DNA from: Aggregatibacter sp. HMT-949
GTDB taxonomy: Bacteria > Pseudomonadota > Gammaproteobacteria > Enterobacterales > Pasteurellaceae
Assembly: GCF_041734645.1 (NCBI RefSeq)
Contig: NZ_CP162010.1
Location: 730,445 to 770,444, forward strand
DNA: 40,000 nt
Direction of reading: 5' to 3'
The translations under genes and the position numbers were made by a program. The notes under the pieces were generated by a model, which did not search any database, was not told the DNA's origin, and worked only from the letters and a program-made list of their open reading frames with translations. Of this stretch, positions 1 to 37,004 are shown piece by piece (positions within the stretch are counted from its first letter, which is position 1; each line of letters begins with the position of its first letter).

Positions 1-754
1 CGAAAGTCGGCAGTTGCAATGCGGTGCCCTTAGTGATGCTGTCCAGATATTGACCAATTAACAAACAGAAAGACATCATGGTAATGGTTTCAATAATGGA
101 ACGAGCATTTACTTTACGCTGATAAGCCGGGTGTTCGAAGGCTTCTTGTACGTCGTCTATTTCGTCATTTTCCGGATTTTCACCTTGTTTTTGACGATTT
201 AACAAGAAACGTGCAACCGGACCACCGATGATTCCGCCGAATACCAAACCGAAGGTCGCACATGCCATAGCAATTTCGGTTGCCGCCGGGAGATTGAACT
301 CTTTGATGAACGTTTCTGCCCAAGCCGCACCGGTACCATGGCCACCGGTTAATGTGACGGAACCAGCCAATAAGCCATATGCCGGATCAATTCCTAAGAG
401 TTCCGAACCGGCAATACCGATAACGTTTTGACAGATAATCAAACCCGCCACCACAAAGAGGAAAATGATTAACGGTTTACCGCCCTTAATTAAGCGAGCA
501 AAATTTGCGCTTAAACCGATGGAGGAGAAGAAAACCAACATCATAGTTGTTTGTAAGCTTTTCTCGAAAGTAAACGAGGTGCCGTCTATTTGATGCCAGA
601 CGAAAAGCCCAATAGCGACGATAAAGCCGCCAACCACCGGCTCAGGAATGTTAAAACTTTTTAGTACATTGATGCGTTTGACCAAAAAGTAACCTAATAG
701 CAAAACAAGGCTTGCAAGCGCAAGAGTTTGGTAGGTATCAAATACAATATTCAC
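1..754 (-). CDS. gltS: sodium/glutamate symporter GltS, N-terminal ~251 codons (C-terminus lies outside the window)
   Basis: Reverse translation from GTG at 754..752 gives VNIVFDTYQTLALASLVLLLGYFLVKRINVLKSFNIPEPVVGGF...LTGGHGTGAAW...MACATFGLVFGGIIGGPVARFL, which is collinear with conserved GltS blocks. AGGAGG (rc of 762..767) lies 7 nt upstream. It is missing from the ORF track because it starts with GTG and is open at the window edge. Confidence 0.85.
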   Translation of the reverse strand, partial: MNIVFDTYQTLALASLVLLLGYFLVKRINVLKSFNIPEPVVGGFIVAIGLFVWHQIDGTSFTFEKSLQTTMMLVFFSSIGLSANFARLIKGGKPLIIFLFVVAGLIICQNVIGIAGSELLGIDPAYGLLAGSVTLTGGHGTGAAWAETFIKEFNLPAATEIAMACATFGLVFGGIIGGPVARFLLNRQKQGENPENDEIDDVQEAFEHPAYQRKVNARSIIETITMMSFCLLIGQYLDSITKGTALQLPTF

Positions 755-786
755 GAAATATCCTCCTATATTGGGTTTCGAAAACG

Positions 787-3042
787 TTATGTGTTGTGTT
801 CCGGTTCAACTACCACAATTTCCACATTACTGTGTAAGCCGCGTGGCAGTTGCGAGCCTTTTCTGCCGCGTTCCGCACGGAATTTGTGCAGATCTTCCGG
901 TTTTAATGTGATTTTTCGTTTACCGGAATGAAACTCAAGACTGGCTTGTTCTGAAATCAGTAATAACTTCACTAATAATTCGCTGCGATCTTTCGCATTC
1001 GCGGCGGAAATGCTAACGATTTTATTGCCTTTACCTTTTGATAATACCGGTAAATCCTGCACCGGGAAAATCAACATTCTGCCTACGGATGTCAAGGCAA
1101 CAAGAAGTGCACTTGGCTTCGACAAAATGAGAGGTGCCAACACTTTGGCATTTTCCGGTAAAGAAATCAAGGCTTTTCCTGCTTTGTTACGTGCAATTAA
1201 ATCGTCAAATTTACAAATAAAGCCGTAACCGGCATCCGATGCCATCAACAAAGCTTGTTGTTCGCCTTCCATCATTACATGTTCAATGGTCGCGCCGGCC
1301 GGCAAAGTAAGTCTACCGGTGAGCGGTTCTCCTTGCGATCTGGCAGATGGCAAGGAAAGCGGATCCAGCGCGTAGCTGCGCCCCGTACTGTCGATAAACA
1401 CGGCGGCTTGATTACTCTTGCCGCAAGCGTGCGCGCGGTAATTATCGCCTGCTTTGTAGCTTAATGCTGTCGGATCAATATCGTGGCCTTTCGCGCAACG
1501 CACCCAACCCATTTGCGATAAAATCACGGTGACCGGTTCCGCAGGCGTCATTTCGCTTTCGGAAATGGCTTTGGCTTCTTCTCGTTCGACCAGTTGGGAC
1601 ATACGCGGACTGGCATATTTTTTCGCATCTTCTTGGATTTCTTTTTTAATCAGCGTGTTTAAGCGACGTTCGGAGCCTAAAGTTGTTTCTAAATTCACCC
1701 GCTCTTTTTCCAATTCATCGCGTTCCGCGCGCAGTTGGTGTTCTTCCAATTTCGCTAAATGACGCAGACGTAAATTTAAAATCGCATCGGCTTGTTCGTC
1801 GCTTAAATTAAAACGCGTCATTAATTCTGCTTTCGGGTTATCGTTGTTGCGAATAATTTCAATCACTTCATCGATATTTAAAAAGGCAATCATTAAGCCT
1901 TCTAAAATATGTAAACGCGACAATACTTTATCCAAGCGATATTGCAAACGGCGAGTGACCGTGGCACGACGAAAAACCAGCCATTCAGTGAGAATTTGCA
2001 ACAAACCTTTTACCGCCGGTTTATGATCAAGTCCGATCATATTCATATTCACGCGATAACTTTTTTCCAAATCCGTGGTGGCGAACAGGTGCGCCATTAA
2101 TGCATCGCAATCCACTCGGTTAGAACGCGGTACGATCACGATCCGAATCGGATTCTCGTGATCTGCCTCGTCGCGAATATCTTCCACCATCGGCAATTTT
2201 TTTGCCGTCATTTGTTCGGCGATTTGTGCGATGATTTTGGACGGTGAAGATTGATGCGGCAGCGCGGAAATGATGATTTCACCGTCTTCTTTTTTCCACG
2301 TTGCACGCATTTTAATTGAGCCACGGCCTTGCTCGTAAATTTTACGAATTTCCGCTTTCGGCGAAATAATTTCCGCTTCAGTCGGGAAATCAGGGCCTTG
2401 TACCACCTCGAGTATCTCATCCAGCACCGCATTGGGCTTATCCAATAGCATCACCGCCGCAGCGGCGATTTCATTGATATTGTGTGGCGGAATATCCGTC
2501 GCCATTCCCACCGCAATGCCGGTGGTGCCGTTAAGCAAAATATGCGGTAAACGCGCCGGTAAAGATTGCGGTTCTACTAATGTGCCGTCGAAGTTCGGCT
2601 GATAATCTACGGTGCCTTGCTCAAGTTCGTTAAGTAAGATTTCAGAAATTTTGGATAGGCGCGATTCCGTATAACGCATTGCCGCGAAAGATTTCGGATC
2701 GTCCGGCGCGCCCCAGTTGCCTTGTCCGTCCACGAGCGGATAACGATAAGAAAATGGTTGCGCCATTAACACCATGGCTTCGTAACAAGCACTGTCACCA
2801 TGCGGGTGAAATTTACCGAGCACATCACCGACGGTGCGAGCGGATTTTTTATATTTCGCGGTGGCGTTTAAACCCAGTTCCGACATGGCGTAAATAATGC
2901 GGCGCTGCACCGGTTTTAATCCGTCGCCGATGAAAGGCAGCGCGCGATCCATAATGACGTACATGGAGTAGTTAAGGTAGGCGCTTTCGGTGAACGTGCG
3001 CAGGGGCATTTGTTCGATGCCTTCGTAGCTGATATTAGTCAT
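787..3042 (-). CDS. parC: DNA topoisomerase IV subunit A
   Basis: 751-aa ORF with the GyrA/ParC N-terminal blocks [24 protein letters not shown] and AAMRYTE. The QRDR Ser and Glu appear wild type. The ~750 aa length and a parE gene nearby favour ParC over GyrA. Confidence 0.96.
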
Positions 3043-3108
3043 TTTTATTTTCTTAATTTGATTGAAATTTTTTTCTTCGAAAATTTTGACGAAGTGAACG
3101 CATTATTT

Positions 3109-3153
3109 AGCACCGCATTGGAGCCTTATTTGGCGCGGCTTCAATGCGGTGCT
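3109..3153. repeat. Inverted pair of the CAATGCGGTGCT motif forming a 17-bp-stem hairpin (1 G-T position, 11-nt loop) between nirK and parC
   Basis: agcaccgcattggagcc (3109..3125) pairs with ggcttcaatgcggtgct (3137..3153). There is no U-tract on either side, so it is not a canonical intrinsic terminator. Confidence 0.85.
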
Positions 3154-4458: not shown

Positions 4459-6357
4459 CTATACCTCCAAATCAACTTGATCTCCTTTGGCTTGCAGCCA
4501 ACTTTTCCGATCTTCCGAGCGTTTTTTAGCCAGCAGCATATCCATTATTTCCAAGGTTTCCGCACCTTCTTCATCATTTGCTTGATAAGTCAATTGCACC
4601 AAACGGCGGGTATTGGGATCCATCGTAGTTTCGCGTAATTGAGACGGATTCATTTCGCCCAATCCTTTAAAGCGCTGCACGTTTGGTTTACCTTTTTTGT
4701 TTTGTAAGCGATCTAAAATTGCCTCTTTTTCGCTTTCGTCTAATGCGTAAAATACTTCTTTATTTAAGTCGATGCGGTACAGCGGCGGCATAGCCACATA
4801 AACATGGCCGTCTTGCACCAATTTTGGAAAATGGCGTAAGAATAGTGCGCAGAGTAGGGTGGCGATGTGTAAACCATCGGAGTCTGCATCGGCGAGAATG
4901 CAAACTTTGCCATAGCGCAGTTGGGATAAATCGTCACTGTCGGGATCAATGCCCAGCGCCACTGCGATATCATGAATTTCGCTCGAGCCTAAAACTTGTT
5001 CGGGCGACACTTCCCAAGTGTTTAAAATTTTTCCGCGTAACGGCAAAATAGCCTGATATTCGCGGTCGCGGGCTTGTTTCGCCGAACCACCGGCGGAATC
5101 GCCTTCCACTAAGAACAATTCAGTTTTTTCTAAATCTTGCGAGCCACAATCGGCAAGTTTGCCCGGAAGCGCCGGGCCGCTAACCAATTTTTTACGTACC
5201 ACTTTTTTTGCCGCGCGTAAGCGACGTTGTGCCGAACTAATTGCCATTTCGGCGAGTTTTTCGGCGTCTTGCACGTTTTGATTCAGCCATAAACTGAAGG
5301 CATCTTTTAACACGCCGCCGACAAACACCGCACTTTGACGCGAAGAGAGGCGTTCTTTGGTTTGGCCGGCGAATTGTGCATCTTGCATTTTTAAGGAAAG
5401 AATGTAACCACAGCGCTCCCAAATATCGTCTGCGGTTAGCTTGACGCCGCGCGGTAATAGATTTCGAAATTCGCAAAATTCGCGAATAGCGTCCAATAGG
5501 CCTTGGCGTAAGCCGTTAACGTGCGTCCCGCCTTGAATAGTCGGGATTAAATTCACGTAGCTTTCGCCAATTAATTCGCCACCTTCCGGTAACCATAACA
5601 ACGCCCAACTAACCGCTTCATTTGAGCCTTTAAATTCGCCCACGAATGGTTTTGCCGGTAATGTTTCGTAACCGTTTACTGCTTCAATAAGATAATCGGA
5701 AAGACCGTCTTGATATAGCCAGACATCTTGCTTGCCATTCACTTTATCAATGAATTTGATTTCGAGACCCGAACAGAGCACCGCTTTGGCACGCAATAAA
5801 TGGCGCAAACGGCTGACGGAAAATTTGGCACTATCGAAATATTTCGGATTCGGTTTAAAGTGAACTGTTGTACCCGTGGTGCGTCTGCCACAAGTGCCGA
5901 CCACTTCCAATTCTTTCACTTTAACGCCGTTTTCAAAGGCAATTTGGTACACTTCGCCGTTGCGTTTTACTTGAATATCCACGCGTTCGGAAAGTGCGTT
6001 CACCACAGAAATTCCGACGCCGTGCAAACCGCCGGCAAATTCATAGTTTTTATTGGAGAATTTTCCGCCCGCGTGCAGTTTGGTGAGAATCACCTCCACG
6101 CCGGATACGCCTTCTGTCGGGTGAATATCCACCGGCATACCGCGGCCGTTATCGGTTACTTCAATAGATTGGTCGGTGTGCAAAATCACTTCAATTTTGC
6201 TTGCGAAGCCGGCAAGTGCTTCGTCCACACTATTATCAATCACTTCTTGTGCGAGGTGATTCGGACGGGTGGTGTCGGTGTACATACCGGGACGAATTTG
6301 CACCGGTTCGAGATCTTTAAGAACAGTAATTTCTTGAGCAGAATAATTGGATGTCAT
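4459..6357 (-). CDS. parE: DNA topoisomerase IV subunit B
   Basis: GHKL ATPase boxes (EVIDNSVDEALAG, DNGRGMP, GGLHGVG) and Toprim motifs (EGDSAGGSAKQ, PLRGKILN, DADSDGLHI). At ~632 aa it lacks the GyrB insertion. I chose the start at MTSNYSAQEI (6357); the track start at 6405 adds 16 codons. Confidence 0.96.
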   Translation of the reverse strand: MTSNYSAQEITVLKDLEPVQIRPGMYTDTTRPNHLAQEVIDNSVDEALAGFASKIEVILHTDQSIEVTDNGRGMPVDIHPTEGVSGVEVILTKLHAGGKFSNKNYEFAGGLHGVGISVVNALSERVDIQVKRNGEVYQIAFENGVKVKELEVVGTCGRRTTGTTVHFKPNPKYFDSAKFSVSRLRHLLRAKAVLCSGLEIKFIDKVNGKQDVWLYQDGLSDYLIEAVNGYETLPAKPFVGEFKGSNEAVSWALLWLPEGGELIGESYVNLIPTIQGGTHVNGLRQGLLDAIREFCEFRNLLPRGVKLTADDIWERCGYILSLKMQDAQFAGQTKERLSSRQSAVFVGGVLKDAFSLWLNQNVQDAEKLAEMAISSAQRRLRAAKKVVRKKLVSGPALPGKLADCGSQDLEKTELFLVEGDSAGGSAKQARDREYQAILPLRGKILNTWEVSPEQVLGSSEIHDIAVALGIDPDSDDLSQLRYGKVCILADADSDGLHIATLLCALFLRHFPKLVQDGHVYVAMPPLYRIDLNKEVFYALDESEKEAILDRLQNKKGKPNVQRFKGLGEMNPSQLRETTMDPNTRRLVQLTYQANDEEGAETLEIMDMLLAKKRSEDRKSWLQAKGDQVDLEV

Positions 6358-6403: not shown

Positions 6404-6436
6404 AAAAGGTGCGATCATTTTCGACCGCACTTTTTT
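6404..6436 (-). terminator. Hairpin terminator downstream of htrB, built on a Hin-type USS (accgcactt, 6424..6432) plus an imperfect inverted partner
   Basis: gtgcgatc (6409..6416) pairs with gaccgcac (6423..6430) with one mismatch. An A-run sits on one side and a T-run on the other, so it looks bidirectional. Confidence 0.6.
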
Positions 6437-6453: not shown

Positions 6454-7389
6454 TTAATCGTATAAGCTCGGATCGTTTTCATTTGGACGAGTTTTAAAAC
6501 GGCGGTGCAACCACATATATTGCGTTATGCCTTTCATAATTTCCTTTTCCACCAGTTGATTCATGCGTGCCGCGACCGCGCTTTCGTTTTCCGAATCGGT
6601 GAAATCTACCGGAGCGGAAATGCTCACTGTATAGCCGGAGCCGTCCGCATTGCGTAAAGGTACGAAAGGAATCACTTTGCTATTCGGCGAGGCTTTTAAT
6701 AAATAATAGCTCCCTGTTGTGGTGGCCGCATTTTTTACGGCGAAGAACGGTACGAACACCGCATTGCGACGGCCGTAATCATGGTCCGGCGCATACCAAA
6801 TGGTTTCGCCACGGCGCAAAGCTTTAATCATACCGCGTAAATCTTTGCGATCTAACATGTCTTTATTGGAACGCAAGCGTCCTTGAGTTTGCAGCCAGTC
6901 AAAGAGCGGATTGTCGTTTGGGCGGTAAACACCGACGCCAGGATGATATAAACCCACGATGCGGGCGCCCAACTCAAGTGTAAGAAAATGTATGCCAACG
7001 AAAATAATGCCGTTTTGTTGATTTTCTTGCAGGTAGCGCAAACCTTCCACTTTTGACCATTTCTTAATGCGCGCGTCCGACCAAAACCAAGCCATACCGG
7101 TTTCGATAATCGCCATGCCGACGGCACGCAAATTTTCTTGTAAAACCGCTTCGCGTTCGCTTTCGGGCATATCGGGAAAACACAGTTCAAGGTTACGGCG
7201 GGCAATCGCAGCACGCCGTTTGCCCACGTTTAAATGGCAAAAAAGTGCACCTAAGCCGTTGCCGATACGGCGTAGAATCGGATAGGGCAGGAACAGGAGG
7301 GCACGCCAGATGCCGATGCCGAGCCAGAATCCCCAATATTTGGGGGCAAGAAAAGCGGGGTGGAACCTAGGTAGTTTGCTATTTTTCAT
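6454..7389 (-). CDS. lpxL: lipid A biosynthesis late (lauroyl/myristoyl) acyltransferase, HtrB/LpxL family
   Basis: 311-312 aa. The N-terminus [23 protein letters not shown] and the blocks [30 protein letters not shown] and WYAPDHDYG are typical of LpxL/HtrB and very similar to H. influenzae HtrB as I recall it. Two adjacent ATGs exist (7392, 7389). Confidence 0.92.
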
Positions 7390-7483: not shown

Positions 7484-8920
7484 ATGGCTCAATATTTAAC
7501 CGAATTTAACCGAGCAAAGGTGCTCGTATTAGGTGATGTAATGCTTGATCGTTACTGGTTTGGCGCAACCAATCGCATTTCGCCGGAAGCGCCGGTGCCG
7601 GTAGTGCGCGTACAGGAAAACGAAGAGCGCGCGGGCGGTGCGGCGAATGTGGCGATGAATATTGCATCGCTCAACGTACCGGTACAACTTATGGGCTTAA
7701 TTGGGCAAGATGAAACCGGCGCGGCGCTTTCCAAATTATTACAAAACCAGCATATCGACTGTAATTTTGTGGCGTTGGACACGCATCCGACAATTACTAA
7801 ATTACGTATTTTATCGCGTCATCAACAATTGCTTCGTCTTGATTTTGAAGAAGATTTCCAAAACACCGAGTGTAACGATTTACTTGCGAAATTAGAAAAT
7901 GAGGTGAAAAACTACGGCGCGTTGATTCTTTCCGATTACGGCAAAGGCACGTTAAAAGATGTGCAACAAATGATTCAAATTGCGCGTAAAGCCAATGTGC
8001 CGGTGTTAATTGATCCGAAAGGTACGAATTTTGAGCGCTATCGCGGCGCCACATTGCTTACCCCGAATATGGCCGAATTTGAAGCGGTGGTGGGTAAATG
8101 TAACTCGGAACAAGAAATTATTGAGAAAGGGTTGAAACTCATTGCCGATATCGATTTGACTGCACTTTTAGTCACCCGCTCTGAAAAGGGAATGACCTTA
8201 CTGCGTCCGAATCAAGAACCTTATCATTTGCCAACGGTGGCGAAAGAAGTGTTTGATGTGACCGGTGCCGGTGATACGGTGATCAGCGTTTTGGGCACCG
8301 CATTGGCGGACGGCCGTTCCTTTGAGGAATCTTGCTATTTGGCAAACGTGGCAGCCGGCATTGTGGTGGGCAAACTCGGCACCTCCACGGTTTCCACCGT
8401 GGAACTTGAAAACGCGATCCACGCCCGTCCGGAAACCGGTTTCGGCATTATGACTGAAGCCCAACTGAAAGAGGCCGTGGCGCAGGCCAAAGCGCGCGGT
8501 GAAAAAATCGTGATGACTAACGGCTGCTTTGATATTCTTCATCCGGGTCACGTGTCTTATTTAGAAAATGCCCGCAAATTGGGCGATCGTTTAATCGTCG
8601 CGGTCAACAGCGATGAATCGGTAAAACGTTTAAAAGGCGAAAGTCGTCCGATTAATAATTTGGACGCCCGCATGGCAGTGCTTGCCGGATTGGCTTCCGT
8701 GGATTGGTTGGTGCCATTTACTGAAGATACGCCGCAACGTTTAATTGGCGAAGTGTTGCCGGATCTACTTGTCAAAGGTGGCGACTACAAACCGGAAGAA
8801 ATTGCCGGAGCCAAAGAAGTGTGGGCGAACGGCGGCGATGTGAAAGTACTTAATTTTGAAAACGGCTGTTCGACGACCAATGTGATTGAAAAAATTAAAT
8901 CGTTGAAAGACGAAAAATAG
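7484..8920 (+). CDS. hldE: bifunctional D-beta-D-heptose 7-phosphate kinase / D-beta-D-heptose 1-phosphate adenylyltransferase
   Basis: N-terminal ribokinase-like domain ([22 protein letters not shown]) plus C-terminal cytidylyltransferase domain ([16 protein letters not shown]). The true start is MAQYLTEF at 7484. The track ORF from 7310 overlaps htrB and is an artefactual extension. Confidence 0.95.
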
Positions 8921-9038: not shown

Positions 9039-9050
9039 CAATGCGGTGCT
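9039..9050 (+). repeat. Single intergenic copy of the CAATGCGGTGCT motif
   Basis: Exact 12-mer. CTGAATTGAG-like boxes lie at 9013..9022 and 9071..9081, and the same box follows the motif at 3152..3161. Confidence 0.9.
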
Positions 9051-9867: not shown

Positions 9868-9879
9868 AGCACCGCATTG
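9868..9879 (-). repeat. Single intergenic copy of the CAATGCGGTGCT motif (reverse orientation)
   Basis: agcaccgcattg. The reverse complement reads gcgttcaatgcggtgctaatttga. Confidence 0.9.
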
Positions 9880-9947: not shown

Positions 9948-12230
9948 TTACTCGGTTCGCATGGTTTCGGCAAATTGCGCGGCAATGGCTGCTTGTCCTA
10001 AACTTAATCCGCCATCGCCCATCGGATATTGATGGCCACTTAGCACTTTAAATTCCGTTAAATTTTCTTTCAATAAACGACGCAATAATTGATTGTGCAT
10101 CACACCGCCGGAAAGCACGATGGTGCGGCAATTGTGTTTTTCCGCGTGTTTACGTGCAAGAGTTGCAAAACCTTGTGCCAAGGCATAATGAAACGCGAAG
10201 GCTTTATCTTCTTTTGAACCTTCGTAAGCCAACCAACTTTGCCAGAAAACGGCGAGATCTAATTTATTCTCTTTTATCGGCATTTTAACCGTGATATCGA
10301 GCGTGCTTTTATTTTTGGCTAAAGGAGATTGTGCGGCAAGCGCCTCTAAATGACAGGCGGCCTCGCCTTCCCACGAGAGTTTTTCAGCGGTGATGCCTAA
10401 GCCGTAGGCCACCGCATCAAATAAGCGACCGGTGGAGGAAATTAATGGCGAATTAACTTTGCCTTCAATTGCTGCTGCAAGCGTTTGCCAAGGCAAATCA
10501 GCACAGCTTTGCGTCGCAATCTCGCGCCAATGCGGTACGAATTGTTGTAAATGCGCAAGCCAGTTGCGCCAAGGTTGAGTCGCCGCTAAATCGCCGCCGG
10601 GCAATGCAACTGCGGGCAGGCCACCTAAATGGCGGCATTGGACACCGTTTACCAACAAGCATTCGCCGCCCCAAAGCTGTCTGTTTTCGCCCATGCCGAT
10701 GCCGTCTAAGGCGATGCCGATCGTTTTGTCGCAGCAATGATGTTCTGCCAGTACGGCAGCAATGTGAGCATGATGGTGAAGTATTTCCACGTAAGGCCGG
10801 CCAAGCTTTTTCGCCAAGGCTTTTCCGATTTTTGAAGAAAAATAACCTTGGTGTGCATCCACCGCAATGATATCCGGCGTGAATTGGTAGATGTGCGAAA
10901 ACAGCGCAATGTTATTTTCTAATTGTTGTTGCACCAATTCGTTAGCGGTGTCGCCGATATGCTGGCTGACCACTGCTTTATTTTGTTTTAACAAACAGAA
11001 AGTGTTTTTTAAATCGGAACCGAATGCCAAAATATTGCGTTGATTTTGCGTATTCAGTACGGTTTCATCCGGCACATAGCCGCGAGCGCGACGCAAGATT
11101 TCCGGGCCATCGAACGCGGCACGGACTAAGGAATCGTCGGCACGCTGTAAAATGTCGCGGTTATGACAAAGATAAAAATCCGCTAATGCAGCTAATTTTT
11201 TGAGCGCATTTTCGTTATCCAAAACCGGCGGTTCGCCACTTGGATTCGCCGACGTCATGACCAAGGGTATCGCGGTTTCTCGCAGCAATAGATGTTGCAA
11301 CGGGTTGCTCGGTAACATCACGCCGATTTCGTTCAAATGGGGCGCGATATTTTCCGCTAAGTTTGGTACTTTGGATTTCTCTAACAGTACAATCGGCGCG
11401 GTGACGGAAGTTAAAAGTCGAATCTCGTCGTCGCTTAAATTTTGAAGAAAAGTAAGGCTTGGCACCATCACGGCGAGCGGTTTGCTCAGGCGATGTTTAC
11501 GCACCCTTAAATTCAGCACCGCATTGAAATCCCGTGCGTCGCAGGCCAAATGAAATCCGCCGATGCCTTTTACTGCAATGATTTTGCCTTCGCGCAGTAA
11601 ATGCGCGCTTTGTTTTAGCGCCGCTTCACTGTTGGCAAGGCGGTGGTTTTGATCTTGCAACCAAATATGTGGACCGCAAACGGCGCAAGCATTGGGTTGT
11701 GCGTGGAAACGGCGATCGGCAGGATTTTTGTATTCGGCGGCACACTCGGGGCAGAGAGAAAAATTCGCCATGGAGGTATTTTTGCGGTCGTAGGGAATGG
11801 CTTTAATAATGGTAAAACGCGGACCGCAGTGAGTACAGTTAGTGAAAGGGTAGTGGTAGCGCCGATTGGTTGGGTCGAATAAATCTTGCAGGCAGGCGGG
11901 ACAGGTAGCAGCGTCTGGCACGATTTGGGTGTCCATGGCGTTGTTTTCACTTTCGCGGATTTCAAAGCCGTCAAAGTGTGGTGGATTTTCCCAGCGTTTT
12001 TCATGCTGCTGAATGTCGGTAATAAGGGCCAGTGGTGGTAGTTTGTTGTGCAAATCGTGTAGGAATTGTTGTAACTGTTGTTTCGTTGGTTCCAGCAGGC
12101 GGATTAACACACCTTGTCCGTCGTTATTGACATCGCCATGTAGTCCGTATTTGTTCGCCAGTAACCAGACAAAAGGACGAAACCCTACGCCTTGTACTTT
12201 ACCTTTGATTCTTAACTCGATTCCGTTCAT
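9948..12230 (-). CDS. hypF: [NiFe]-hydrogenase maturation carbamoyltransferase HypF
   Basis: 760 aa. It has an acylphosphatase domain (GKVQGVGFRPFV) and two zinc-finger pairs (CPACLQD...CTHCGPRFT and CPECAAEY...CAVCGP). YrdC-like and Kae1-like C-terminal domains follow. Confidence 0.95.
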   Translation of the reverse strand: MNGIELRIKGKVQGVGFRPFVWLLANKYGLHGDVNNDGQGVLIRLLEPTKQQLQQFLHDLHNKLPPLALITDIQQHEKRWENPPHFDGFEIRESENNAMDTQIVPDAATCPACLQDLFDPTNRRYHYPFTNCTHCGPRFTIIKAIPYDRKNTSMANFSLCPECAAEYKNPADRRFHAQPNACAVCGPHIWLQDQNHRLANSEAALKQSAHLLREGKIIAVKGIGGFHLACDARDFNAVLNLRVRKHRLSKPLAVMVPSLTFLQNLSDDEIRLLTSVTAPIVLLEKSKVPNLAENIAPHLNEIGVMLPSNPLQHLLLRETAIPLVMTSANPSGEPPVLDNENALKKLAALADFYLCHNRDILQRADDSLVRAAFDGPEILRRARGYVPDETVLNTQNQRNILAFGSDLKNTFCLLKQNKAVVSQHIGDTANELVQQQLENNIALFSHIYQFTPDIIAVDAHQGYFSSKIGKALAKKLGRPYVEILHHHAHIAAVLAEHHCCDKTIGIALDGIGMGENRQLWGGECLLVNGVQCRHLGGLPAVALPGGDLAATQPWRNWLAHLQQFVPHWREIATQSCADLPWQTLAAAIEGKVNSPLISSTGRLFDAVAYGLGITAEKLSWEGEAACHLEALAAQSPLAKNKSTLDITVKMPIKENKLDLAVFWQSWLAYEGSKEDKAFAFHYALAQGFATLARKHAEKHNCRTIVLSGGVMHNQLLRRLLKENLTEFKVLSGHQYPMGDGGLSLGQAAIAAQFAETMRTE

Positions 12231-16036: not shown

Positions 16037-16046
16037 GAGGTCGAAC

Positions 16047-22409: not shown

Positions 22410-22421
22410 GGGAGGCGGAAG

Positions 22422-24937: not shown

Positions 24938-25681
24938 TTATTTTTCTTTCCAATATCCAATCCATTCTTTCAGCAATTGCATATTTTTTGCCAGTGCGCC
25001 GCCTTGAGGAATAAAATGCATCATATTTAACCCGTATTCTTGCGGTGTAATACCTTCCCCGACACTCGCCGGCATTACCACAAAACCTTGTTGTTCAAAT
25101 AAGAGTTTTGCGCGCTGCATATGCCACTCGTTCGTCACCAAAATAATTTTATGAATTCCTTCTTTTTCCAATATTTGCTTAGTGAATAAGGCGTTTTCTT
25201 TTGTTGTGAGTGCTTTCGGCTCAATCCATTTGGTCGGAACATTGAAAAAGTTTTGTAATTCCTCCGCCGCGACTTTAGCTTCAATTGCACCGGTCGGGCT
25301 GGCGCCGGTAATTAACAGCGGAAGTTTGGTTTCTTTTTGCAAATAAGCAGCGTAACGCAACCGTTCCAACTGAACCGCATTGGAGGCAAGAGGGGCATAA
25401 AGTTCTTGGCTGTCGCGTAAACCACCGCCGAGCAAAACGATCGCTTGCGCTTGTTTATAGTCATCAAGATTAAGATGCGCTTCAATTGTCAGGCTATCCT
25501 TTAGCGTTTGTGCGGTAAAAGGAATGCTTAATATATAGAGTAGGGCTATCCCTAATGCAGTTGAAATTCGGCTTAATTTTTTAAAGTTTAATTTTGCCAG
25601 AATCAGCGCCGCAATCCATAAAATCAAAATATTAAACGGTGGTAGGAGCATTGCGGTGATTAGTTTTTTGAGTTCAAACAT
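24938..25681 (-). CDS. DUF218 / YdcF-ElyC family envelope biogenesis protein
   Basis: 247 aa with N-terminal TM segments. LLGGG, ITGASP and VTNEWHMQRA are typical of the DUF218 (SanA/YdcF/ElyC) fold. Confidence 0.75.
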   Translation of the reverse strand: MFELKKLITAMLLPPFNILILWIAALILAKLNFKKLSRISTALGIALLYILSIPFTAQTLKDSLTIEAHLNLDDYKQAQAIVLLGGGLRDSQELYAPLASNAVQLERLRYAAYLQKETKLPLLITGASPTGAIEAKVAAEELQNFFNVPTKWIEPKALTTKENALFTKQILEKEGIHKIILVTNEWHMQRAKLLFEQQGFVVMPASVGEGITPQEYGLNMMHFIPQGGALAKNMQLLKEWIGYWKEK

Positions 25682-26637: not shown

Positions 26638-28157
26638 TTTTTTACCTTTTTCAAAATATAGCCGAATAAGAAATTTTTTTCCGCGCGATTTAAGCCGAAG
26701 ATTATAATTACGGCGATTAATAGCGCTTCTAATAAAATTGCTTCCGCCACAAATTCAAAGAATGAATAAGAATGTTGGGTATCCGATAAATAAATGAGCC
26801 CGAGTAACAAGACGAAAATTATCCCGATATTGAATAAATAGGTAACAAATTCCACTCGACTAAATTTAATTTTTTTATTAATAAAATAGAAACGATAGAT
26901 TTGCATTGAAAGCGCAGTGAAAAATTTGCCGATAAAGGCGTAAACCGGACTATAACCTAGGCTAAATAAATAGTAGGCGAGCGGCACTGTGCAAAGATCA
27001 ATTATTGCTAAAATAATATTGTATTGTTTGATACCGCTTGAACCAATGGCCAATGCGGTCATCCAGAAAGAGCCGGCCATAGCGCTGATCAGTGAACATA
27101 GCAAAGTGGCTTGTACTAATTGATCGGCATAGCGCGGAACATGCTCGCCAAGCCAAAAGGTAAGCAAGGTATGGCTAAAATAAAATACCGGAGCGGCTAA
27201 AATCGCGATTAAATAAAAGGAATATTTTGATGTACTGAGAATCAGTTTTTTATTGCGTTCATAATCTTGTGCCGCATAAGACTGCACCAATTGCGGGTTA
27301 AATGCGACTTGGAAATTATTTACGAAACTATACACGGCGGTATCCACTTGTGTAGCAATACCCACTGCCGCATTCACGGTGACGCCAAAAAACAGATTGG
27401 TCACCATATTCAAGCCTTGCGTGGAACCTACATAACCCGCCTGTCCGAGTAACATCCAACCTGAAAAGCTTGCCATTTCTTTGGTTTTGTTTAGATCTTT
27501 TTGGAAATTAAAGCGGGTTTCCGCGTAAAAAGTACGGCGTGTAAAACTAAAATATAGCGAGAAAACTGATACGCTGACACAAAGTAATAACCAACTGTAC
27601 GAAATCAATTTATCGTATTGTTCGATTTGCATCAAAATCAAGACGGCGGAAAGTTTGAATGCGGTTTCCGCCAAACCAAGCCAGGCGTAAAAAGACATGC
27701 GCTCATGAGCTACAATCATCGCGTTAAAAGGTACTTTAAGGATATCAATCAGTCCAATCACTAACGCTGCTTGGTACATCATATTGGCAGCATGGAGGCG
27801 TTCTGCCGGAATAATTAATTGATGATTTAAAAACCAAAGCCCTACGGTTTCAGCTAACACCGCCACGACAAACATAATAAATAGGTGGTTGAGGATGCTG
27901 ATATTAAACACCTTATTTACGCGAGCGGTATCGTTTGAGGCTTTTTCCACGTTAATAAAACGCTGGGTGGTCGCTGTCATGGTGCCGTTAAAGAAAGAAA
28001 ACAAAATCACCACACCCATCACAATGTTATAAATTCCGAAATCCTCCACCCCCAATACGCGTAATACGACACGCGAAATATAGAGCATCGCCCCCATGTT
28101 AAAGAACATACGGATGTAAAGAAACAGTGTGTTTTTAGCAATGGTTTTGTTGGACAT
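26634..28157 (-). CDS. wzx: Wzx-type oligosaccharide flippase (MOP superfamily polysaccharide biosynthesis protein)
   Basis: 507-aa, ~12-14 TM protein. The N-terminus KNTLFLYIRMFFNMGAMLYISRVVLRVLGVEDFGIYN is typical of RfbX/Wzx. The gene is AT-rich. Confidence 0.75.
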   Translation of the reverse strand: MSNKTIAKNTLFLYIRMFFNMGAMLYISRVVLRVLGVEDFGIYNIVMGVVILFSFFNGTMTATTQRFINVEKASNDTARVNKVFNISILNHLFIMFVVAVLAETVGLWFLNHQLIIPAERLHAANMMYQAALVIGLIDILKVPFNAMIVAHERMSFYAWLGLAETAFKLSAVLILMQIEQYDKLISYSWLLLCVSVSVFSLYFSFTRRTFYAETRFNFQKDLNKTKEMASFSGWMLLGQAGYVGSTQGLNMVTNLFFGVTVNAAVGIATQVDTAVYSFVNNFQVAFNPQLVQSYAAQDYERNKKLILSTSKYSFYLIAILAAPVFYFSHTLLTFWLGEHVPRYADQLVQATLLCSLISAMAGSFWMTALAIGSSGIKQYNIILAIIDLCTVPLAYYLFSLGYSPVYAFIGKFFTALSMQIYRFYFINKKIKFSRVEFVTYLFNIGIIFVLLLGLIYLSDTQHSYSFFEFVAEAILLEALLIAVIIIFGLNRAEKNFLFGYILKKVKK

Positions 28158-28485: not shown

Positions 28486-28534
28486 AGCACCGAATTGGAA
28501 CGGCCTACAATGGAACGGCCTCCAATGCGGTGCT
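28486..28534. repeat. Second inverted pair of the CAATGCGGTGCT motif (14-bp arms, 1 mismatch, 21-nt loop) in the divergent wzx / GT25 intergenic region
   Basis: agcaccgaattgga (28486..28499) pairs with tccaatgcggtgct (28521..28534). The loop holds a near-tandem duplication, aattggaacggcctac / aatggaacggcctcc. The element is followed by ATTTTGAATTGAG. Confidence 0.85.
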
Positions 28535-29520: not shown

Positions 29521-30729
29521 ATGAGCGCACTTTTTAACCTTTTTTATATTTACGATCCTTGGTTTTTCCATGTGGTGCGTATGTCTGTAGTGGCCGGATT
29601 AGCGGCTTTCACCGTATTGGCGTATCGATATTGGAAAAAAACGTCGCCACAAAATTTTCAAGGTTTCGTCGTGCCGATGGACAGTCTTGCCGTATTGATC
29701 GGTTTAATTTTATTTAGTGTGATCCCATTATTAGTAAATGGTACGCGCGATTTTTCTGTCCTTGTCATGTATGTGAAAGAACTGATTTTATTTGTTTTCG
29801 GTATCGGCCTTTATAATCTGTTTTATGCGCTGCCAAATGGGAAACAATGTGCGGTACGGGATTTACAAATCGGTGTTGCTGTGCAATTTGTGTTAGGCGT
29901 GCTGGCGTTGTTCGGCGTATCTTTTGTGGTGGATTTTTTATTATCTACCAATGCGGTGCTGCCCGCGCGTTTCTATGGTTCCGAACAGGAATATCGCCTG
30001 TATAATCTGACGTCGGCAGCGTTTTTTCAGCTTAGTTTATTCTATTTAATGCTGTTTCATTTCTTGTTGGCGTACGACGCAAAACATAATTCCGTTCCGA
30101 GCATCTTGGTATTGTTAATCCTTTGTATTGGCTTGATTTCAGGCAGAACATTTTTATTGCTTTCGGTGGTAAGTATTGCTGTGTATTTCAAGCGACGTTA
30201 TCTGCCGTCACTCATTGCATTTGTCTCATTGGTATTAGGTTTAGCTTATTTTTTACCATTTAATCCTTATGTGGCTCACGCACTTGAGCCGGTGATTAAT
30301 TTGTTACATGGTGCCGGTTTTGTGAGTTCATCTACCGACACGTTAATGAAAAATCATTTATTTATGCCGACCTTAAAACAATTTTTAATCGGTGACGGTA
30401 TGTATATGACGGACGAGTTGGAAGCAGGGCGTTATTACGGCCATACGGATTCCGGATTTTTGCGCCAAATTTTATACGGCGGTTTGAGTTATGCATTAGT
30501 ATGCTTTTTAGTGACGTTCTATTTCGTACGCAAAGTAGCATTAAATTGGTTTGACGGTAGCTGGAGGTTCATTTTGTCCACCTTTGTTATTCTCGCTGTC
30601 AGCAATGTTAAAGCCGATACCTTCGCCTTTCCGGGTATTATGTTTGTCATGTTGATGTTTTTGTCATTATTTGGCTCGCACGGCAAACAACGAATTTTTT
30701 TAACCCCAAAGGAGGTGAAGCATGTTTAG
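29521..30729 (+). CDS. polytopic membrane protein, putative Wzy-type repeat-unit polymerase / O-antigen ligase-like
   Basis: 402 aa with ~10 TM segments and a larger loop containing GHTDSGFLRQILYGG. It sits between glycosyltransferases and opposite wzx. No strong family motif is recognisable by eye. Confidence 0.5.
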   Translation: MSALFNLFYIYDPWFFHVVRMSVVAGLAAFTVLAYRYWKKTSPQNFQGFVVPMDSLAVLIGLILFSVIPLLVNGTRDFSVLVMYVKELILFVFGIGLYNLFYALPNGKQCAVRDLQIGVAVQFVLGVLALFGVSFVVDFLLSTNAVLPARFYGSEQEYRLYNLTSAAFFQLSLFYLMLFHFLLAYDAKHNSVPSILVLLILCIGLISGRTFLLLSVVSIAVYFKRRYLPSLIAFVSLVLGLAYFLPFNPYVAHALEPVINLLHGAGFVSSSTDTLMKNHLFMPTLKQFLIGDGMYMTDELEAGRYYGHTDSGFLRQILYGGLSYALVCFLVTFYFVRKVALNWFDGSWRFILSTFVILAVSNVKADTFAFPGIMFVMLMFLSLFGSHGKQRIFLTPKEVKHV

Positions 30730-31631: not shown

Positions 31632-32435
31632 ATGAAATTTTCAGTTTTAATGTCCTTATATATTAAGGAAAATCCGGAGTATTTAAGAGCGTGTTTTGCA
31701 AGCCTTGTAGCGCAAACCCGTCCGGCGGATGAGATTGTGTTGGTATTTGACGGCGCGGTTACGCCGGAATTAGAAGCCGTGGTTGACGAATTTGAATCTC
31801 AATTACCGTTAAAATTGGTTAAATTGCCGCAAAATCTTGGCTTAGGTAAAGCGCTAAATGAAGGCTTGCTGCATTGTTCCTACGATTGGGTATTTCGCAT
31901 GGATACCGATGATATTTGTGTGCCGGAACGTTTTGAAAAACAAACGGCATTTATTAATGCCCATCCTGATACGATTATTTTTGGCGGGCAAATCGTCGAA
32001 TTCGGCCAGAATATAAATGATATTGTTGCCTATCGTAATGTGCCAACTGATGCGGTGTCCATTGTGAAGTTCACTCGGAAACGTTGTCCGTTTAACCATA
32101 TGACGGTGGCGTATCAAAAGAATGCGGTGCTTGATTGCGGTGGCTATGAAGATTTGCAAGAAGATTATTACTTGTGGATAAAACTTATAGCCAAAAAACA
32201 GCAAGTGGCAAATTTACCGGATATTCTCGTTTATGCTCGCGTTGGAAACGGTATGGTAGGGCGTCGGCGCGGTTTAAATCATGCCAAAGCCGAGTGGCGT
32301 TTGTTTAAATTAAAATATCGTCTCGGTATTCAAGGATTCGTATCGGGTTTATTCACTTTTGCTCTGCGATCCGCCTCTCGTTTACTGCCGACCGCTTTAT
32401 TGAAAGCGATTTATAACAAGTTTTTGAGAAAATAG
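31632..32435 (+). CDS. glycosyltransferase family 2 (AmsE/EpsH-like)
   Basis: FSVLMSLYIKENPEYL, VLVFDG and RMDTDDICVPERF are typical of this GT2 subgroup. Confidence 0.85.
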   Translation: MKFSVLMSLYIKENPEYLRACFASLVAQTRPADEIVLVFDGAVTPELEAVVDEFESQLPLKLVKLPQNLGLGKALNEGLLHCSYDWVFRMDTDDICVPERFEKQTAFINAHPDTIIFGGQIVEFGQNINDIVAYRNVPTDAVSIVKFTRKRCPFNHMTVAYQKNAVLDCGGYEDLQEDYYLWIKLIAKKQQVANLPDILVYARVGNGMVGRRRGLNHAKAEWRLFKLKYRLGIQGFVSGLFTFALRSASRLLPTALLKAIYNKFLRK

Positions 32436-34455: not shown

Positions 34456-36738
34456 ATGAACATTCGTCAACTCATCAAACAGCACCGCATTGAACGCCTA
34501 TTCCAGCAAGGCACTTTCGGCATTGAAAAAGAAAGCCAGCGCGTTTATGCGGACGGCTCGATCGTCACAACGGAACATCCAAAGACGTTTGGTAATCGCA
34601 GTTTTCACCCTTATATTCAAACGGATTTTGCTGAAAGTCAGTTAGAATTAATCACACCACCGACAAAATCTTTAGAAGACACTATGCGTTGGCTTTCCGC
34701 AATTCATGAAGTCGTATTGCGTAGTTTGCCGGAAGACGAATATATTTTCCCGCTCAGTATGCCTGCCGGTTTGCCGCCGGAAGAACAAATTAAAGTCGCG
34801 CAATTAGAGAATCCGGAAGATGTGGCTTACCGCGAATATTTGGTGAAAAGTTACGGCAAATATAAACAAATGGTGAGCGGTATTCACTACAATTTCCAAC
34901 TTGATCCGTCTGCCGTTAAAGCGCTTTTTGAGGCGCAAACGGAAGAAAAAAATTTGTTCAACTTCCAGAATAATTTATACCTGAAAATTGCTAAAAATTT
35001 TCTACGCTATCAATGGATCTTGCTGTATTTACTTGCCGCCACGCCGACTGTGGACGAAAATTATTTTCGTGAGGGTTCGCCGCTGCGTCCACAACAATAT
35101 GTGCGTAGCTTGCGTTCCAGTCCCTTTGGTTATGTGAACGATCCGGAAATTAAAGTCTCTTTTGATAGCCTGGAAGCCTATGTTGACAGTCTTGAGCATT
35201 GGGTGAACAGTGGTAAGTTAATCGCTGAAAAAGAATTTTATTCAAATGTCCGCTTACGTGGCGCGAAAAAAGCACGCGATTTATTGCAAAGCGGCATCCA
35301 ATATCTTGAATTCCGTTTGTTTGATCTCAATCCCTTTGCCGCTTGCGGTCTTCTTTTAGAAGACGCCAAATTTATTCATTATTTCATTTTATTAATGGCG
35401 TGGTTAGAGGATACAGCGGATCAGGACGCGATAGAACTGGGTAAAGGACGTCTTGCGGAAGTGGCGTGGGAAGATCCGTTGGCGCAAAGCGCGTATTCGG
35501 TGGAAGGCGAGCTAGTACTTTTTGAGATGCTTGAAATGCTTGAAGAACTGCAAGCCGATGATGGAATTAAGGCGATTGTAAGGGAAAAATTCACGCAATT
35601 TGCCGAACCGTGGAAAACTGTTTGCGCGAATGTCGTGGTTGCTATTGAGAAAGCGGGCGGTTATCAGCAATTAGGCGCGGATATTGCAAAAGGCAATAAA
35701 CTTCTTGCTTTTGAGCGTTTCTATGCCTTGTCTGCATTCGATAATATGGAACTTTCTACCCAAGCATTGATGTTCGATGCGATCCAAAAAGGCTTAAAGA
35801 TCGAAATTTTAGACGAGCGCGATCAATTCCTAAGTCTGCAATACGGCGAGCATTTGGAATATGTGAAAAACGGTAATATGACTTCGCACGATAGCTACAT
35901 TTCGCCGCTAATTATGGAAAATAAAGTGGTGACTAAAAAGGTATTGGCAAAAGCCGGTTTTAACGTGCCGCAAAGCATGGAGTTTAACGATGTGCAAACT
36001 GCGGTGGAGAATTTTCCGCTATTTGACGGTCGCGCGGTAGTGATTAAACCGAAATCCACTAATTTCGGCTTGGGCATTACCATTTTTCAACAAGGCGTGC
36101 AAAATCGCGAAGACTTCGCCAAAGCGGTGGAAATTGCCTTCCGTGAAGATAAAGAAATTATGGTAGAAGATTATTTGATCGGCACCGAATATCGTTTCTT
36201 CGTATTAGGCGATAAAACCTTGGCGGTATTATTACGTGTGCCGGCAAATGTTATTGGCGACGGTGAACATACAATTAAACAATTGGTGGCGATGAAAAAT
36301 GCTGATCCGTTGCGCGGTGATGGTAGTCGCACGCCGTTGAAGAAAATCGCCTTGGGGGATATTGAAGAATTGCAGTTAAAAGAGCAAGGTTTCACACCAA
36401 TCTCCATTCCGCCGAGAGATGTTATTGTTCAGTTGCGTGCGAATTCGAATATCAGCACCGGCGGTGACTCGATTGATATGACTGATCAAATGCACGAAAG
36501 CTACAAACAACTTGCTGTCGATATTAGTAAAGCAATGGGCGCGGCAGTGTGTGGCGTGGATTTGATTATTCCCGATTTAACCAAACCGGCTCAGCCGAAT
36601 TTGCAGTCTTGGGGCGTCATTGAAGCCAATTTTAATCCGATGATGATGATGCATATTTTCCCGTATGCGGGGGAAAGTCGTCGAGTAACGTTGGACGTCA
36701 TTAGTATGTTATTTCCGGAACTGCCGTTGTATCGTTAA
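34456..36738 (+). CDS. gshF: bifunctional glutamate-cysteine ligase / glutathione synthetase (GshF, also called GshAB)
   Basis: 760 aa. The N-terminal gamma-glutamylcysteine ligase domain has GIEKESQRV and SGIHYNF. It is fused to a C-terminal ATP-grasp domain (VVIKPKSTNFGLGI, EYRFFVL, IEANFNP), as described for Pasteurella multocida and Streptococcus agalactiae. Confidence 0.92.
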   Translation: MNIRQLIKQHRIERLFQQGTFGIEKESQRVYADGSIVTTEHPKTFGNRSFHPYIQTDFAESQLELITPPTKSLEDTMRWLSAIHEVVLRSLPEDEYIFPLSMPAGLPPEEQIKVAQLENPEDVAYREYLVKSYGKYKQMVSGIHYNFQLDPSAVKALFEAQTEEKNLFNFQNNLYLKIAKNFLRYQWILLYLLAATPTVDENYFREGSPLRPQQYVRSLRSSPFGYVNDPEIKVSFDSLEAYVDSLEHWVNSGKLIAEKEFYSNVRLRGAKKARDLLQSGIQYLEFRLFDLNPFAACGLLLEDAKFIHYFILLMAWLEDTADQDAIELGKGRLAEVAWEDPLAQSAYSVEGELVLFEMLEMLEELQADDGIKAIVREKFTQFAEPWKTVCANVVVAIEKAGGYQQLGADIAKGNKLLAFERFYALSAFDNMELSTQALMFDAIQKGLKIEILDERDQFLSLQYGEHLEYVKNGNMTSHDSYISPLIMENKVVTKKVLAKAGFNVPQSMEFNDVQTAVENFPLFDGRAVVIKPKSTNFGLGITIFQQGVQNREDFAKAVEIAFREDKEIMVEDYLIGTEYRFFVLGDKTLAVLLRVPANVIGDGEHTIKQLVAMKNADPLRGDGSRTPLKKIALGDIEELQLKEQGFTPISIPPRDVIVQLRANSNISTGGDSIDMTDQMHESYKQLAVDISKAMGAAVCGVDLIIPDLTKPAQPNLQSWGVIEANFNPMMMMHIFPYAGESRRVTLDVISMLFPELPLYR

Positions 36739-36760
36739 AACTGGCTAAGCAGAATCGAAA

Positions 36761-36793
36761 TTCGCTCTTTCGTTTGAAAGAGCGAATTTTTTT
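36761..36793 (+). terminator. Rho-independent terminator after gshF
   Basis: Perfect 11-bp stem ttcgctctttc / gaaagagcgaa with a 4-nt loop, followed by T7. Confidence 0.9.
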
Positions 36794-36857
36794 ATCGAAA
36801 ATTAATGGCCGGTGCACGATTTATGCAGAAATAAATGCCCGACATAAGATTTAGCAA

Positions 36858-37004
36858 GGGTTCAATGCGGTGCTCTGAGAAGGGTTCAATGCGGTGCTCT
36901 GGGAAGAGTTCAATGCGGTGCTCTGAGAAGAGTTCAATGCGGTGCTCTGGAAAGAGTTCAATGCGGTGCTCTGAGAAAAGAGTTCAATGCCGTACCGCAT
37001 GAAG
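36858..37004 (+). repeat. Tandem array: 5 copies of a 24-bp unit (one is 26 bp), each containing GTTCAATGCGGTGCT, plus a degenerate sixth palindromic copy
   Basis: Units start at 36858, 36882, 36906, 36930 and 36954 (consensus gRgttcaatgcggtgctctgRgaaR). The sixth, gagttcaatgccgtaccgcatgaag (36980..37004), abuts the stop codon of the DUF1919 gene. Confidence 0.95.

Follow-up and report, generated by a model that had tools for sequence, protein, structure and literature searches.

A candidate third dialect of the DNA uptake signal of the Pasteurellaceae in Aggregatibacter sp. HMT-949

Described uptake signals and the motif of HMT-949

Two types of uptake signal sequence (USS) have been described in the Pasteurellaceae. 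The Hin-type, carried by Haemophilus, Aggregatibacter, Pasteurella and Rodentibacter, consists of the core AAGTGCGGT with two AT-rich segments, and the Apl-type, carried by Actinobacillus, Mannheimia and Glaesserella, consists of the core ACAAGCGGT with an extended segment 3, AAAATTTTGCAAAT. These types were defined in 2006 in a study that did not rule out others (PMC1626085), and two Pasteurellaceae dialects were counted in October 2025 (PMC12616744). In the same month the Pasteurellales were scanned for dialects (bioRxiv 10.1101/2025.10.24.684340); the three new ones all belonged to the Neisseriaceae, and the Pasteurellaceae count stayed at two. The present analysis concerns 40,000 nucleotides of the chromosome of Aggregatibacter sp. 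HMT-949, which belongs to the human mouth and was previously recorded in 16S surveys alone; this whole stretch (NZ_CP162010.1, positions 730,445 to 770,444) is called the window below. Scattered through it is a 12-mer, CAATGCGGTGCT, which, judged by its distribution and by its history among relatives, is quite likely the core of a third Pasteurellaceae USS dialect, used by HMT-949.

The motif resembles the Hin-type USS in many respects. The two share TGCGGT, including the GCGG, and both occur at about 0.5-0.9 copies per kb in either orientation, in coding as well as intergenic DNA and with a reading-frame bias. Both arise by point mutation, have more perfect than mismatched copies, form terminator-like inverted pairs and belong to hosts with a CRP-S competence regulon, seen in part for HMT-949. 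In the flank of either type, the T-tract (+13 to +16) and the second element (about +22 to +27) keep an equal register. The differences begin with the core, which reads C-A-A-T rather than A-A-G-T (positions 1 and 3). The new type also has GCT after GCGGT (71-83% even when unpaired), its segment 3 is TTCA and not a T-run, its pairs are reverse-then-forward only, and it forms 24-bp tandem arrays. Hin-type copies coexist with it in the genome at about 0.2 per kb and have distinct flanks of their own.

With the Apl-type the motif has in common the GCGGT core, an A two bases before GCGGT, a dialect change 5' of the inner core and a sequence-specific segment 3. It differs on either side of GCGGT, with T in place of A directly before and GCT in place of C behind, and has another segment 3. 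The relatives of HMT-949 are Hin-type, and the motif would therefore represent an independent switch within the Hin subclade. A more distant parallel is found in the DNA uptake sequences (DUS) of the Neisseriaceae, with eight dialects described by Frye et al. (2013) and three proposed in 2025. These are likewise lineage-specific variants around an invariant inner core; their distribution follows phylogeny, many of them form inverted-repeat terminators, and a role in limiting transformation between species is assumed. They differ in belonging to another family, in their unrelated sequence (a CTG core in a contiguous 10-12-mer, with no phased flanks) and in having a known receptor, ComP.

In the open-access texts searched, no paper names the motif as a USS, and the string matches only primers and unrelated sequences. 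HMT-949 has been tabulated as a weak Hin-USS carrier (174 per Mb) without its dominant motif being reported (PMC12616744). In a collection of genome contigs, the matches listed for the 14-mer TTCAATGCGGTGCT were single chance ones in unrelated phyla, with none in the Pasteurellaceae. The third dialect would be new, and its uptake function we infer from the genomic record.

Abundance, anatomy and origin of the motif

Counts in the window were taken as exact matches on both strands, with 100 dinucleotide-preserving shuffles as the null. The 10-mer AATGCGGTGC, for which a first-pass annotation of the window had claimed 20 copies, does occur exactly 20 times; the shuffles averaged 0.16 copies and never exceeded 2, so that none of the 100 reached 20. 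The positions then given for the copies all agree as well, the quoted starts being those of the 12-mer, with the 10-mer usually starting one base higher. With at most one mismatch, CAATGCGGTGCT has 24 sites where 0.33 are expected, CAATGCGGT is the commonest 9-mer with 24 copies, and the motif tops the k-mer ranking at k = 8 to 12. Partial copies had been listed at eight further places; those at 6757, 10528, 17603, 24549, 25374 and 27051 carry CAATGCGGT, whereas those at 28993 and 32050 carry ATGCGGTG instead. The Hin-type 9-mer AAGTGCGGT is enriched too, with 7 copies (not 6, as first counted) against 0.28 expected, and the Apl-type 9-mer ACAAGCGGT has no copy in the window.

The lineage was sampled more widely through metagenome loci that match inverted pairs of the form AGCACCGCATTG-N5-35-CAATGCGGTGCT. 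This gave at least 120 loci and ~960 kb (~750 kb non-redundant, of which 721 kb were used for counts), with a GC content of ~44.5%. In this way ~39% of the genome was sampled; the window itself is partly covered by three of the loci, which are 95-98% identical to it. In the 721 kb, CAATGCGGT occurs 532 times (337 times without any ascertained pair) and the 12-mer CAATGCGGTGCT 397 times, compared to order-4 Markov expectations of 44 and 1.1. The resulting 0.47-0.74 copies per kb make the motif by far the commonest 9- to 12-mer. In unascertained sequence, made up of the window with a further 10 kb past its left end and a 3-kb right extension (L245 and L121), the density is ~0.6-0.7 per kb. These figures imply ~900-1,350 copies in the 1.92-Mb HMT-949 genome. 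The dominant USS of other Pasteurellaceae reaches ~700-900 per Mb (PMC12616744, supplementary table), and the density of the HMT-949 motif matches this usual value. The dominant 9-mer is clearly CAATGCGGT over AAGTGCGGT, by 532 to 145 in the lineage sample and 24 to 7 in the window, and the Apl-type 9-mer ACAAGCGGT is at chance level in the sample (18 copies, 17.4 expected).

The core of unpaired copies reads C-A-A-T-G-C-G-G-T-G-C-T; at +9, +10 and +11, 83% of these copies have the G, 80% the C and 71% the T. Upstream, T and T/C adjoin the core and a G stands at -5; downstream there is an R-T-T-T-T tract at +12 to +16 and a second element, T-T-C-A, at +22 to +25, so that the extended form is G-n-y-T-T/C-CAATGCGGTGCT-RTTTT-N5-TTCA. 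This consensus takes the place of the flank 'RAATTTGA' proposed in the first-pass annotation. Inside genes the C at +24 is kept in 53% and the G at -5 in 50% of copies, and both are therefore parts of the signal and not a by-product of pairing. An origin of the +24 signal as an artefact of tandem copies was ruled out, GCGGT not being enriched at +28 to +32. The T-tract (+13 to +16) and second element (+22 to +25) are in register with the segments 2 and 3 that flank Hin-type USS in the same genomes, a phased layout that was described in PMC1626085. With ascertained pairs excluded, there are 202 perfect 12-mers to 143 for the 36 single-mismatch variants combined (ratio 1.41). Among these variants the positions of ATGCGGTG hardly vary, and uptake by H. 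influenzae depends critically on the inner GCGG (PMC12616744).

The motif is by no means confined to a few dozen intergenic copies. Between 243 and 256 copies lie inside open reading frames (ORFs), in both orientations, with a strong bias to the frames sense-2 and antisense-2, which read N-A-V-L and T-A-L, respectively. About half of all copies, and 72% of the unpaired ones, are inside ORFs of housekeeping genes, and non-coding DNA, 12% of the sequence, holds 28-52% of copies. There is no strand polarity, the orientation within contigs being random (majority fraction 0.663, with 0.662 expected), and the copies are evenly dispersed among loci (p = 0.66).

The nearest named relatives of HMT-949 are not close. 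ParC is 93% identical to that of Rodentibacter and ~90% to that of H. haemolyticus, and UvrC is 85% identical to the proteins of Rodentibacter, Cricetibacter and Avibacterium. The metagenome locus L121 (20.6 kb; UvrC 97%) has 13 new-type copies and 1 Hin-type copy. In three loci of about 22 kb the figures are 0 new-type and 16 Hin-type (L122; UvrC 92%), 1 and 17 (L243, Rodentibacter pneumotropicus; ParC 93%) and 0 and 19 (L244, H. haemolyticus; ParC 90%). The new-type USS that the window carries in hldE, lpxL, parE and parC align ungapped to ordinary sequence in L243 and L244, and three of the four Hin-type USS that L243 and L244 share in these genes are mutated in the window, the one in parE being retained. 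At the parC site (2423..2434), for example, the ungapped alignment has CCCAAAGCCAACCTT for Rodentibacter and CCTAAAGCGGGATTA for H. haemolyticus, and the site was therefore created by substitutions (CCC AAT GCG GTG CTG versus CCC AAA GCC AAC CTT).

The same was seen in a wider comparison of 26 orthologous ORF pairs, with Rodentibacter, H. haemolyticus and L122 as the relatives. All 12 comparisons of new-type coding sites were ungapped, to non-USS sequence 1-7 point substitutions away, and of 15 comparisons made at Hin-type USS of the relatives, 12 had a mutated site in HMT-949; none of the comparisons fell at a gap. The motif therefore arises by substitution, as was shown for the USS of H. influenzae (PMC1626085). 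On the evidence of the aligned sites, it is not made by in-place conversion of old USS. The first-pass annotation had put the motif forward as a lineage-specific uptake signal and had proposed Markov-controlled counts, a check of strand and frame bias and a comparison of orthologous positions. Density, distribution, lineage specificity and orthologous alignments all favour that proposal, and none of the refuting outcomes it had named, so far as they could be checked, was observed.

A proposed switch of uptake specificity and the competing explanations

A mechanism that would produce this pattern can be outlined. Competent cells would bind double-stranded DNA at their surface via the type IV pilus machinery, and a receptor, predicted in the literature to be the minor pilin ComN/PpdA and presumably the same protein here, would favour fragments bearing the motif. 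Its specificity would have changed from A to C at the first core position and from G to A at the third, gained three bases (GCT) 3' of GCGGT and exchanged the T-run of segment 3 for TTCA. Preferential uptake and homologous recombination would spread motif-creating mutations (molecular drive), and copies would therefore pile up at every site that tolerates them, among these the reading frames for N-A-V-L or T-A-L. Intergenic copies would be co-opted as inverted pairs, AAAAY-AGCACCGCATTG-N10-CAATGCGGTGCT-RTTTT, that serve as bidirectional intrinsic terminators. The ancestor would have been Hin-type; after the switch the old copies would be without advantage and decaying, with ~20-25% left. HMT-949 cells would, by this account, prefer CAATGCGGTGCT-bearing DNA today. 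With moderate confidence, HMT-949 can be placed in the middle of a switch of uptake specificity within the Hin subclade, with a 12-bp dialect at full density and about a fifth of the Hin signals surviving as neutrally decaying relics.

In the HMT-949 lineage the residual Hin-type 9-mer AAGTGCGGT has a density of 0.17-0.20 per kb, which exceeds the Markov expectation 6-fold and is about three times that of the next NNNNGCGGT 9-mer. Its copies keep the full canonical flanks: aAAGTGCGGT is followed by a T-tract (+12 to +16) and a T-rich stretch (+23 to +27). For GCA_041734645.1 (strain W10649) the published values are 173.75 Hin-USS and 20.3 Apl-USS per Mb, and for other Aggregatibacter ~880-900 Hin-USS per Mb (PMC12616744, supplementary table); the Hin-USS density of the strain matches that of the metagenome sample, which is therefore representative. 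Between strains that are ~98% identical, new-type cores diverge by 0.83% versus 1.9% for the background (p = 0.009) and Hin-type cores by 2.6% (Fisher test of new versus Hin, p = 0.012), the pairwise comparisons in both tests being not fully independent.

The Hin-type copies are also clustered (p = 4e-8), a signal that comes partly from the locus L177, possibly of another species. Five of the window's seven Hin-type USS lie in the hyf operon (12000-23880, hyfA-hyfI), where the new-type 10-mer is missing altogether, a depletion with a Poisson P of 0.002-0.005. HyfG, a very conserved protein, shares 97% identity with its counterparts from H. parainfluenzae and A. actinomycetemcomitans; for ParC, the identity to other genera does not exceed 93%. 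These values are no more than suggestive of a recent import from a Hin-type species, and the operon may simply be very conserved. More generally, Hin-rich segments such as the hyf operon and prophage-like DNA may be imports from Haemophilus or Aggregatibacter co-resident in the human mouth.

Three further loci show mixed signals. L177 (14.4 kb) contains housekeeping genes (cyaA, ABC transporters, a TonB receptor, gyrB and recQ) with 13 Hin-type and 4 new-type cores, and L173, with 7 Hin-type and 2 new-type copies, is only 84% identical to the aligned L176, which has 2 and 8. L177 and L173 come either from a co-resident Hin-type species that acquired a new-type pair or, as recombinant alleles, from the population of HMT-949 itself. 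L246 (IMG/VR UViG_3300014037_000091, 12.8 kb) is prophage-like (RecT, DUF2303, Beta protein) and has seven Hin-type USS and one new-type pair near one end; it is the sole contig of the viral collection with such a pair. Hosts that differ in dialect may share this phage, or else the new-type pair may belong to flanking host DNA.

An exact search of the lineage loci for TGCGA-N6-TCGCA found four full CRP-S sites (TTTTGCGATnnnnATCGCAAAA), upstream of comM, comE1 (ComEA-type), radC and rlmN-pilW. The comM (YifB) product has 515 aa and is full length, as are those of comE1, radC and pilW. These genes (rlmN-pilW being HI0365/HI0366-like) are presumably homologues of units of the H. influenzae competence regulon, and their family assignments agree; the regulon is taken in the composition that Redfield reportedly gave it in 2005. 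Four of ~13 regulon units in ~39% of the genome is roughly proportionate. A looser CRP-S scan gave no further convincing sites in the lineage loci. Within the sampled ~39% of the genome, tblastn with the L122 Rec2 detected no rec2, and two scans for prepilin motifs detected no pilin or ComN-like gene.

The best-placed alternative is that this uptake specificity did evolve but that competence was then lost, as in H. ducreyi, leaving the motif with no present function beyond its terminator pairs. USS are known to outlast competence loss in other Pasteurellaceae (PMC1626085), and most of the machinery genes are not among the sampled sequence. However, a density of ~0.6-0.7 per kb and a ratio of 1.41 are typical of maintained USS, H. 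ducreyi having ~120-140 per Mb. Furthermore, new-type cores evolve ~2.3 times slower than background, as Hin-type relics do not, and comM, comE1, radC and pilW are full length and preceded by CRP-S sites. Loss of competence in HMT-949 seems improbable on these grounds.

The inverted pairs bear on the other alternatives. They have the form AAAAY-AGCACCGCATTG-RAAGC·GCTTY-CAATGCGGTGCT-RTTTT, and with the N10 spacer they give a hairpin of ~20 bp and ~-32 kcal/mol with a U-run after it on both strands. Their flanking genes are convergent for 42 pairs, tandem for 35 and divergent for 4 (all intergenic regions: 84, 223 and 76). This placement fits bidirectional terminators, and termination would be expected at them. 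New-type pairs are always reverse-then-forward, with their T-rich 3' flanks outward, and no forward-then-reverse pair within 30 nt was found in all 246 fetched loci, unlike the Hin-type pairs of the same loci, which take either arrangement. The two pairs and hairpins claimed for the window are borne out. The first, 3109-3120(-)/3142-3153(+), folds with -29 kcal/mol (z -5.8) on one strand and -35.8 kcal/mol (z -7.3) on the other, and the second, 28486-28497(-, one mismatch)/28523-28534(+), with -26.6 and -27.6 kcal/mol; for both together, z-scores span -3.9 to -7.3 and energies -27 to -36 kcal/mol.

Several observations weigh against a third uptake dialect. A copy-and-paste flavour attaches to the stereotypy of the pairs, 68 of 97 non-redundant ones having a 10-nt spacer. 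The same flavour attaches to the 24-bp arrays, which occur at several unrelated loci, and to a conserved ~47-nt module that adjoins ~10% of pair flanks. The choice of metagenome loci via perfect inverted pairs inflates the pair counts, and some loci of the sample (e.g. L177) may be from other species. Core position 1 is a C, off the pattern ANNNGCGGT that was proposed as family-wide (PMC1626085), and the Hin-type USS, still 6-fold over-represented, may point to dual or relaxed specificity. Finally, pilABCD, comABCDEF, rec2, dprA, tfoX and comNOPQ did not turn up in the sampled ~39% of the genome.

The pairs (with their conserved AAAAY/RTTTT flanks), module and arrays, along with a very strong consensus typical of copied elements, would suit a mobile REP/REPIN- or MITE-like repeat, possibly moved by a RAYT or IS200-type transposase, in which the pairs are functional and the coding copies incidental. 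Yet about half of the copies, and nearly three-quarters of the unpaired ones, are in housekeeping ORFs, and the single coding copies share the phased flanks. The spacers and outer flanks of pairs and arrays vary by locus, the motif's own flank consensus aside, and sister taxa carry Hin-type USS instead, at equal density. The first-pass annotation had already disfavoured a REP/MITE element, and the 12 ungapped coding-site comparisons, with their 1-7 point substitutions, contradict it; a mobile repeat is very unlikely. A site for an intracellular protein, a polar motif (KOPS/AIMS- or Chi-like) or a plain terminator would also suit an oligomer highly over-represented in coding and intergenic DNA, with pairs placed like terminators, but is scarcely credible against a random orientation (KOPS and Chi are strongly strand-polarised), ~250 single intragenic copies that termination leaves unexplained, a GCGG core, flank register and density like those of the family USS, and the reciprocal replacement of the Hin-type between sister lineages.

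The array at 36856-36990 varies between strains, with 5 units in the window, 2 in L121 (~14250-14330) and 6 in L221 (~5480-5600). Arrays of 24-bp period are also found at L136, L147, L175, L193, L203, L216, L226 and L237, with differing spacers, and the period equals the distance from the core-opening TTCA to the TTCA of segment 3. The 47-nt module, TGAGGTCATTTYAGCYTTGTGCAACnGCTACATAATTTCG, was seen only beside new-type USS, often with a degenerate reverse Hin-type USS 10-20 nt further on; its sites include L224:3656, L226 ~3100, L233:716 and 5966 (minus), L165:724 and L220:837 (minus). An Rfam scan of eight loci with the module gave no match for it, and it may be a small RNA, a regulatory site or a short intergenic repeat.

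A third dialect within the Hin subclade, with relics of the older one, would be direct evidence on the co-evolution of uptake specificity and genomic motifs, and would supply a third data point for receptor-motif co-variation with which the ComN/PpdA prediction can be tested. If HMT-949 is in mid-switch, it would offer a natural experiment to pinpoint the specificity residues of the predicted USS receptor ComN/PpdA, and a test of dialect switching as a gene-flow barrier between bacteria of one niche. In practical terms, the motif could be added to DNA constructs for attempted transformation of HMT-949, and USS type could serve as a marker of horizontally imported segments.

Sites of the window and neighbouring observations

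The window is ordinary chromosome. Of ten window proteins, nine have exact counterparts in the protein collection, every one of them assigned to Aggregatibacter sp. HMT-949 (taxid 3235088). Its genes in order begin with gltS, parC, aniA, parE, lpxL and hldE, continue with a nitroreductase gene, hypF, the hyf hydrogenase-4 operon, hycH and hycI, and end with a lipo-oligosaccharide (LOS) glycosyltransferase cluster, uvrC, gshAB and maeB. Mapping site by site agrees with the earlier statement that copies are found in coding and intergenic DNA in either orientation (Table 1).

Table 1. New-type and Hin-type USS of the window
Positions	Strand	Element	Location	Basis or remark
17..28	+	USS copy CAATGCGGTGCC, last base mismatched	3' part of gltS-like gene cut by window start	gene named via L245 synteny
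2423..2434	-	perfect 12-mer	parC, sense, encodes P-N-A-V-L	motif scan
3109..3153	.	inverted pair of perfect 12-mers, AGCACCGCATTG-N21-CAATGCGGTGCT, terminator-like hairpin	downstream of aniA, upstream of parC	
5327..5335	-	Hin-type USS CAAAGTGCGGT, retained ancestral	parE	scan and alignment; codons match Rodentibacter and H. haemolyticus
5777..5788	-	one-mismatch copy CAAAGCGGTGCT	parE	motif scan
6409..6432	-	Hin-type USS in terminator-like hairpin	downstream of parE	motif scan
6755..6766	-	CAATGCGGTGTT	lpxL (R-N-A-V-F)	relatives carry AAAAATGCCGTG, ungapped alignment
8294..8305	-	CAATGCGGTGCC	hldE, antisense (G-T-A-L-A)	motif scan and ortholog alignment
9039..9050	+	perfect 12-mer	intergenic, between convergent hldE and nitroreductase genes	motif scan
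9868..9879	-	perfect 12-mer with full flank GTTCAATGCGGTGCTAATTTGA	intergenic, downstream of hypF	motif scan
10528..10536	+	9-mer core CAATGCGGT	hypF, antisense	motif scan
11515..11526	-	perfect 12-mer	hypF, sense	motif scan
15521..23029	.	five Hin-type USS: 15521, 16832, 19217, 19805, 23021	hyf operon	region without new-type 10-mer
17601..17612	-	CAATGCGGTGAT	hyfD	motif scan; sole new-type core of the 12-kb hyf operon
23888..23960	+	two perfect 12-mers, direct orientation, 61 nt apart	hyfI-hycH intergenic	motif scan
24549..24557	-	9-mer core	hycI	motif scan
25374..25382	-	9-mer core	DUF218 gene	motif scan
26475..26486	+	TAATGCGGTGCT	polysaccharide pyruvyl-transferase-like gene	motif scan
27051..27059	+	9-mer core	507-aa ORF	motif scan
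28486..28534	.	inverted pair: CAATTCGGTGCT (-), 25-nt spacer, perfect 12-mer (+), then ATTTTGA	divergent genes either side	
29949..29960	+	perfect 12-mer	402-aa ORF of LOS/glycosyltransferase cluster	motif scan
32120..32131	+	GAATGCGGTGCT	family-2 glycosyltransferase gene	motif scan
34481..34492	-	perfect 12-mer	codons 9-13 of gshAB, antisense	motif scan
36856..36990	+	24-bp tandem repeat, 5.5 units, 5 perfect 12-mers	downstream of gshAB	repeat analysis; copies at 36863-36970

In HMT-949 the copper nitrite reductase gene aniA (3252-4475) sits between parE and parC, which are adjacent in Rodentibacter and H. haemolyticus, and the pair at 3109-3153 is just downstream of the inserted gene. Proteins VTM253xx, from a contig of 1,927,773 bp filed as Stutzerimonas stutzeri, are 98-99% identical to those of the window, with the nitroreductase identical; this record looks like a mislabelled genome of the HMT-949 lineage. 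Low counts of both dialects have been reported for Mergibacter septicus (~33-35 per Mb), Gallibacterium salpingitidis (31), Pasteurella atlantica (~128) and Otariodibacter oris (196) (PMC12616744), and some of these low-USS Pasteurellaceae might hide further dialects rather than have lost their USS.

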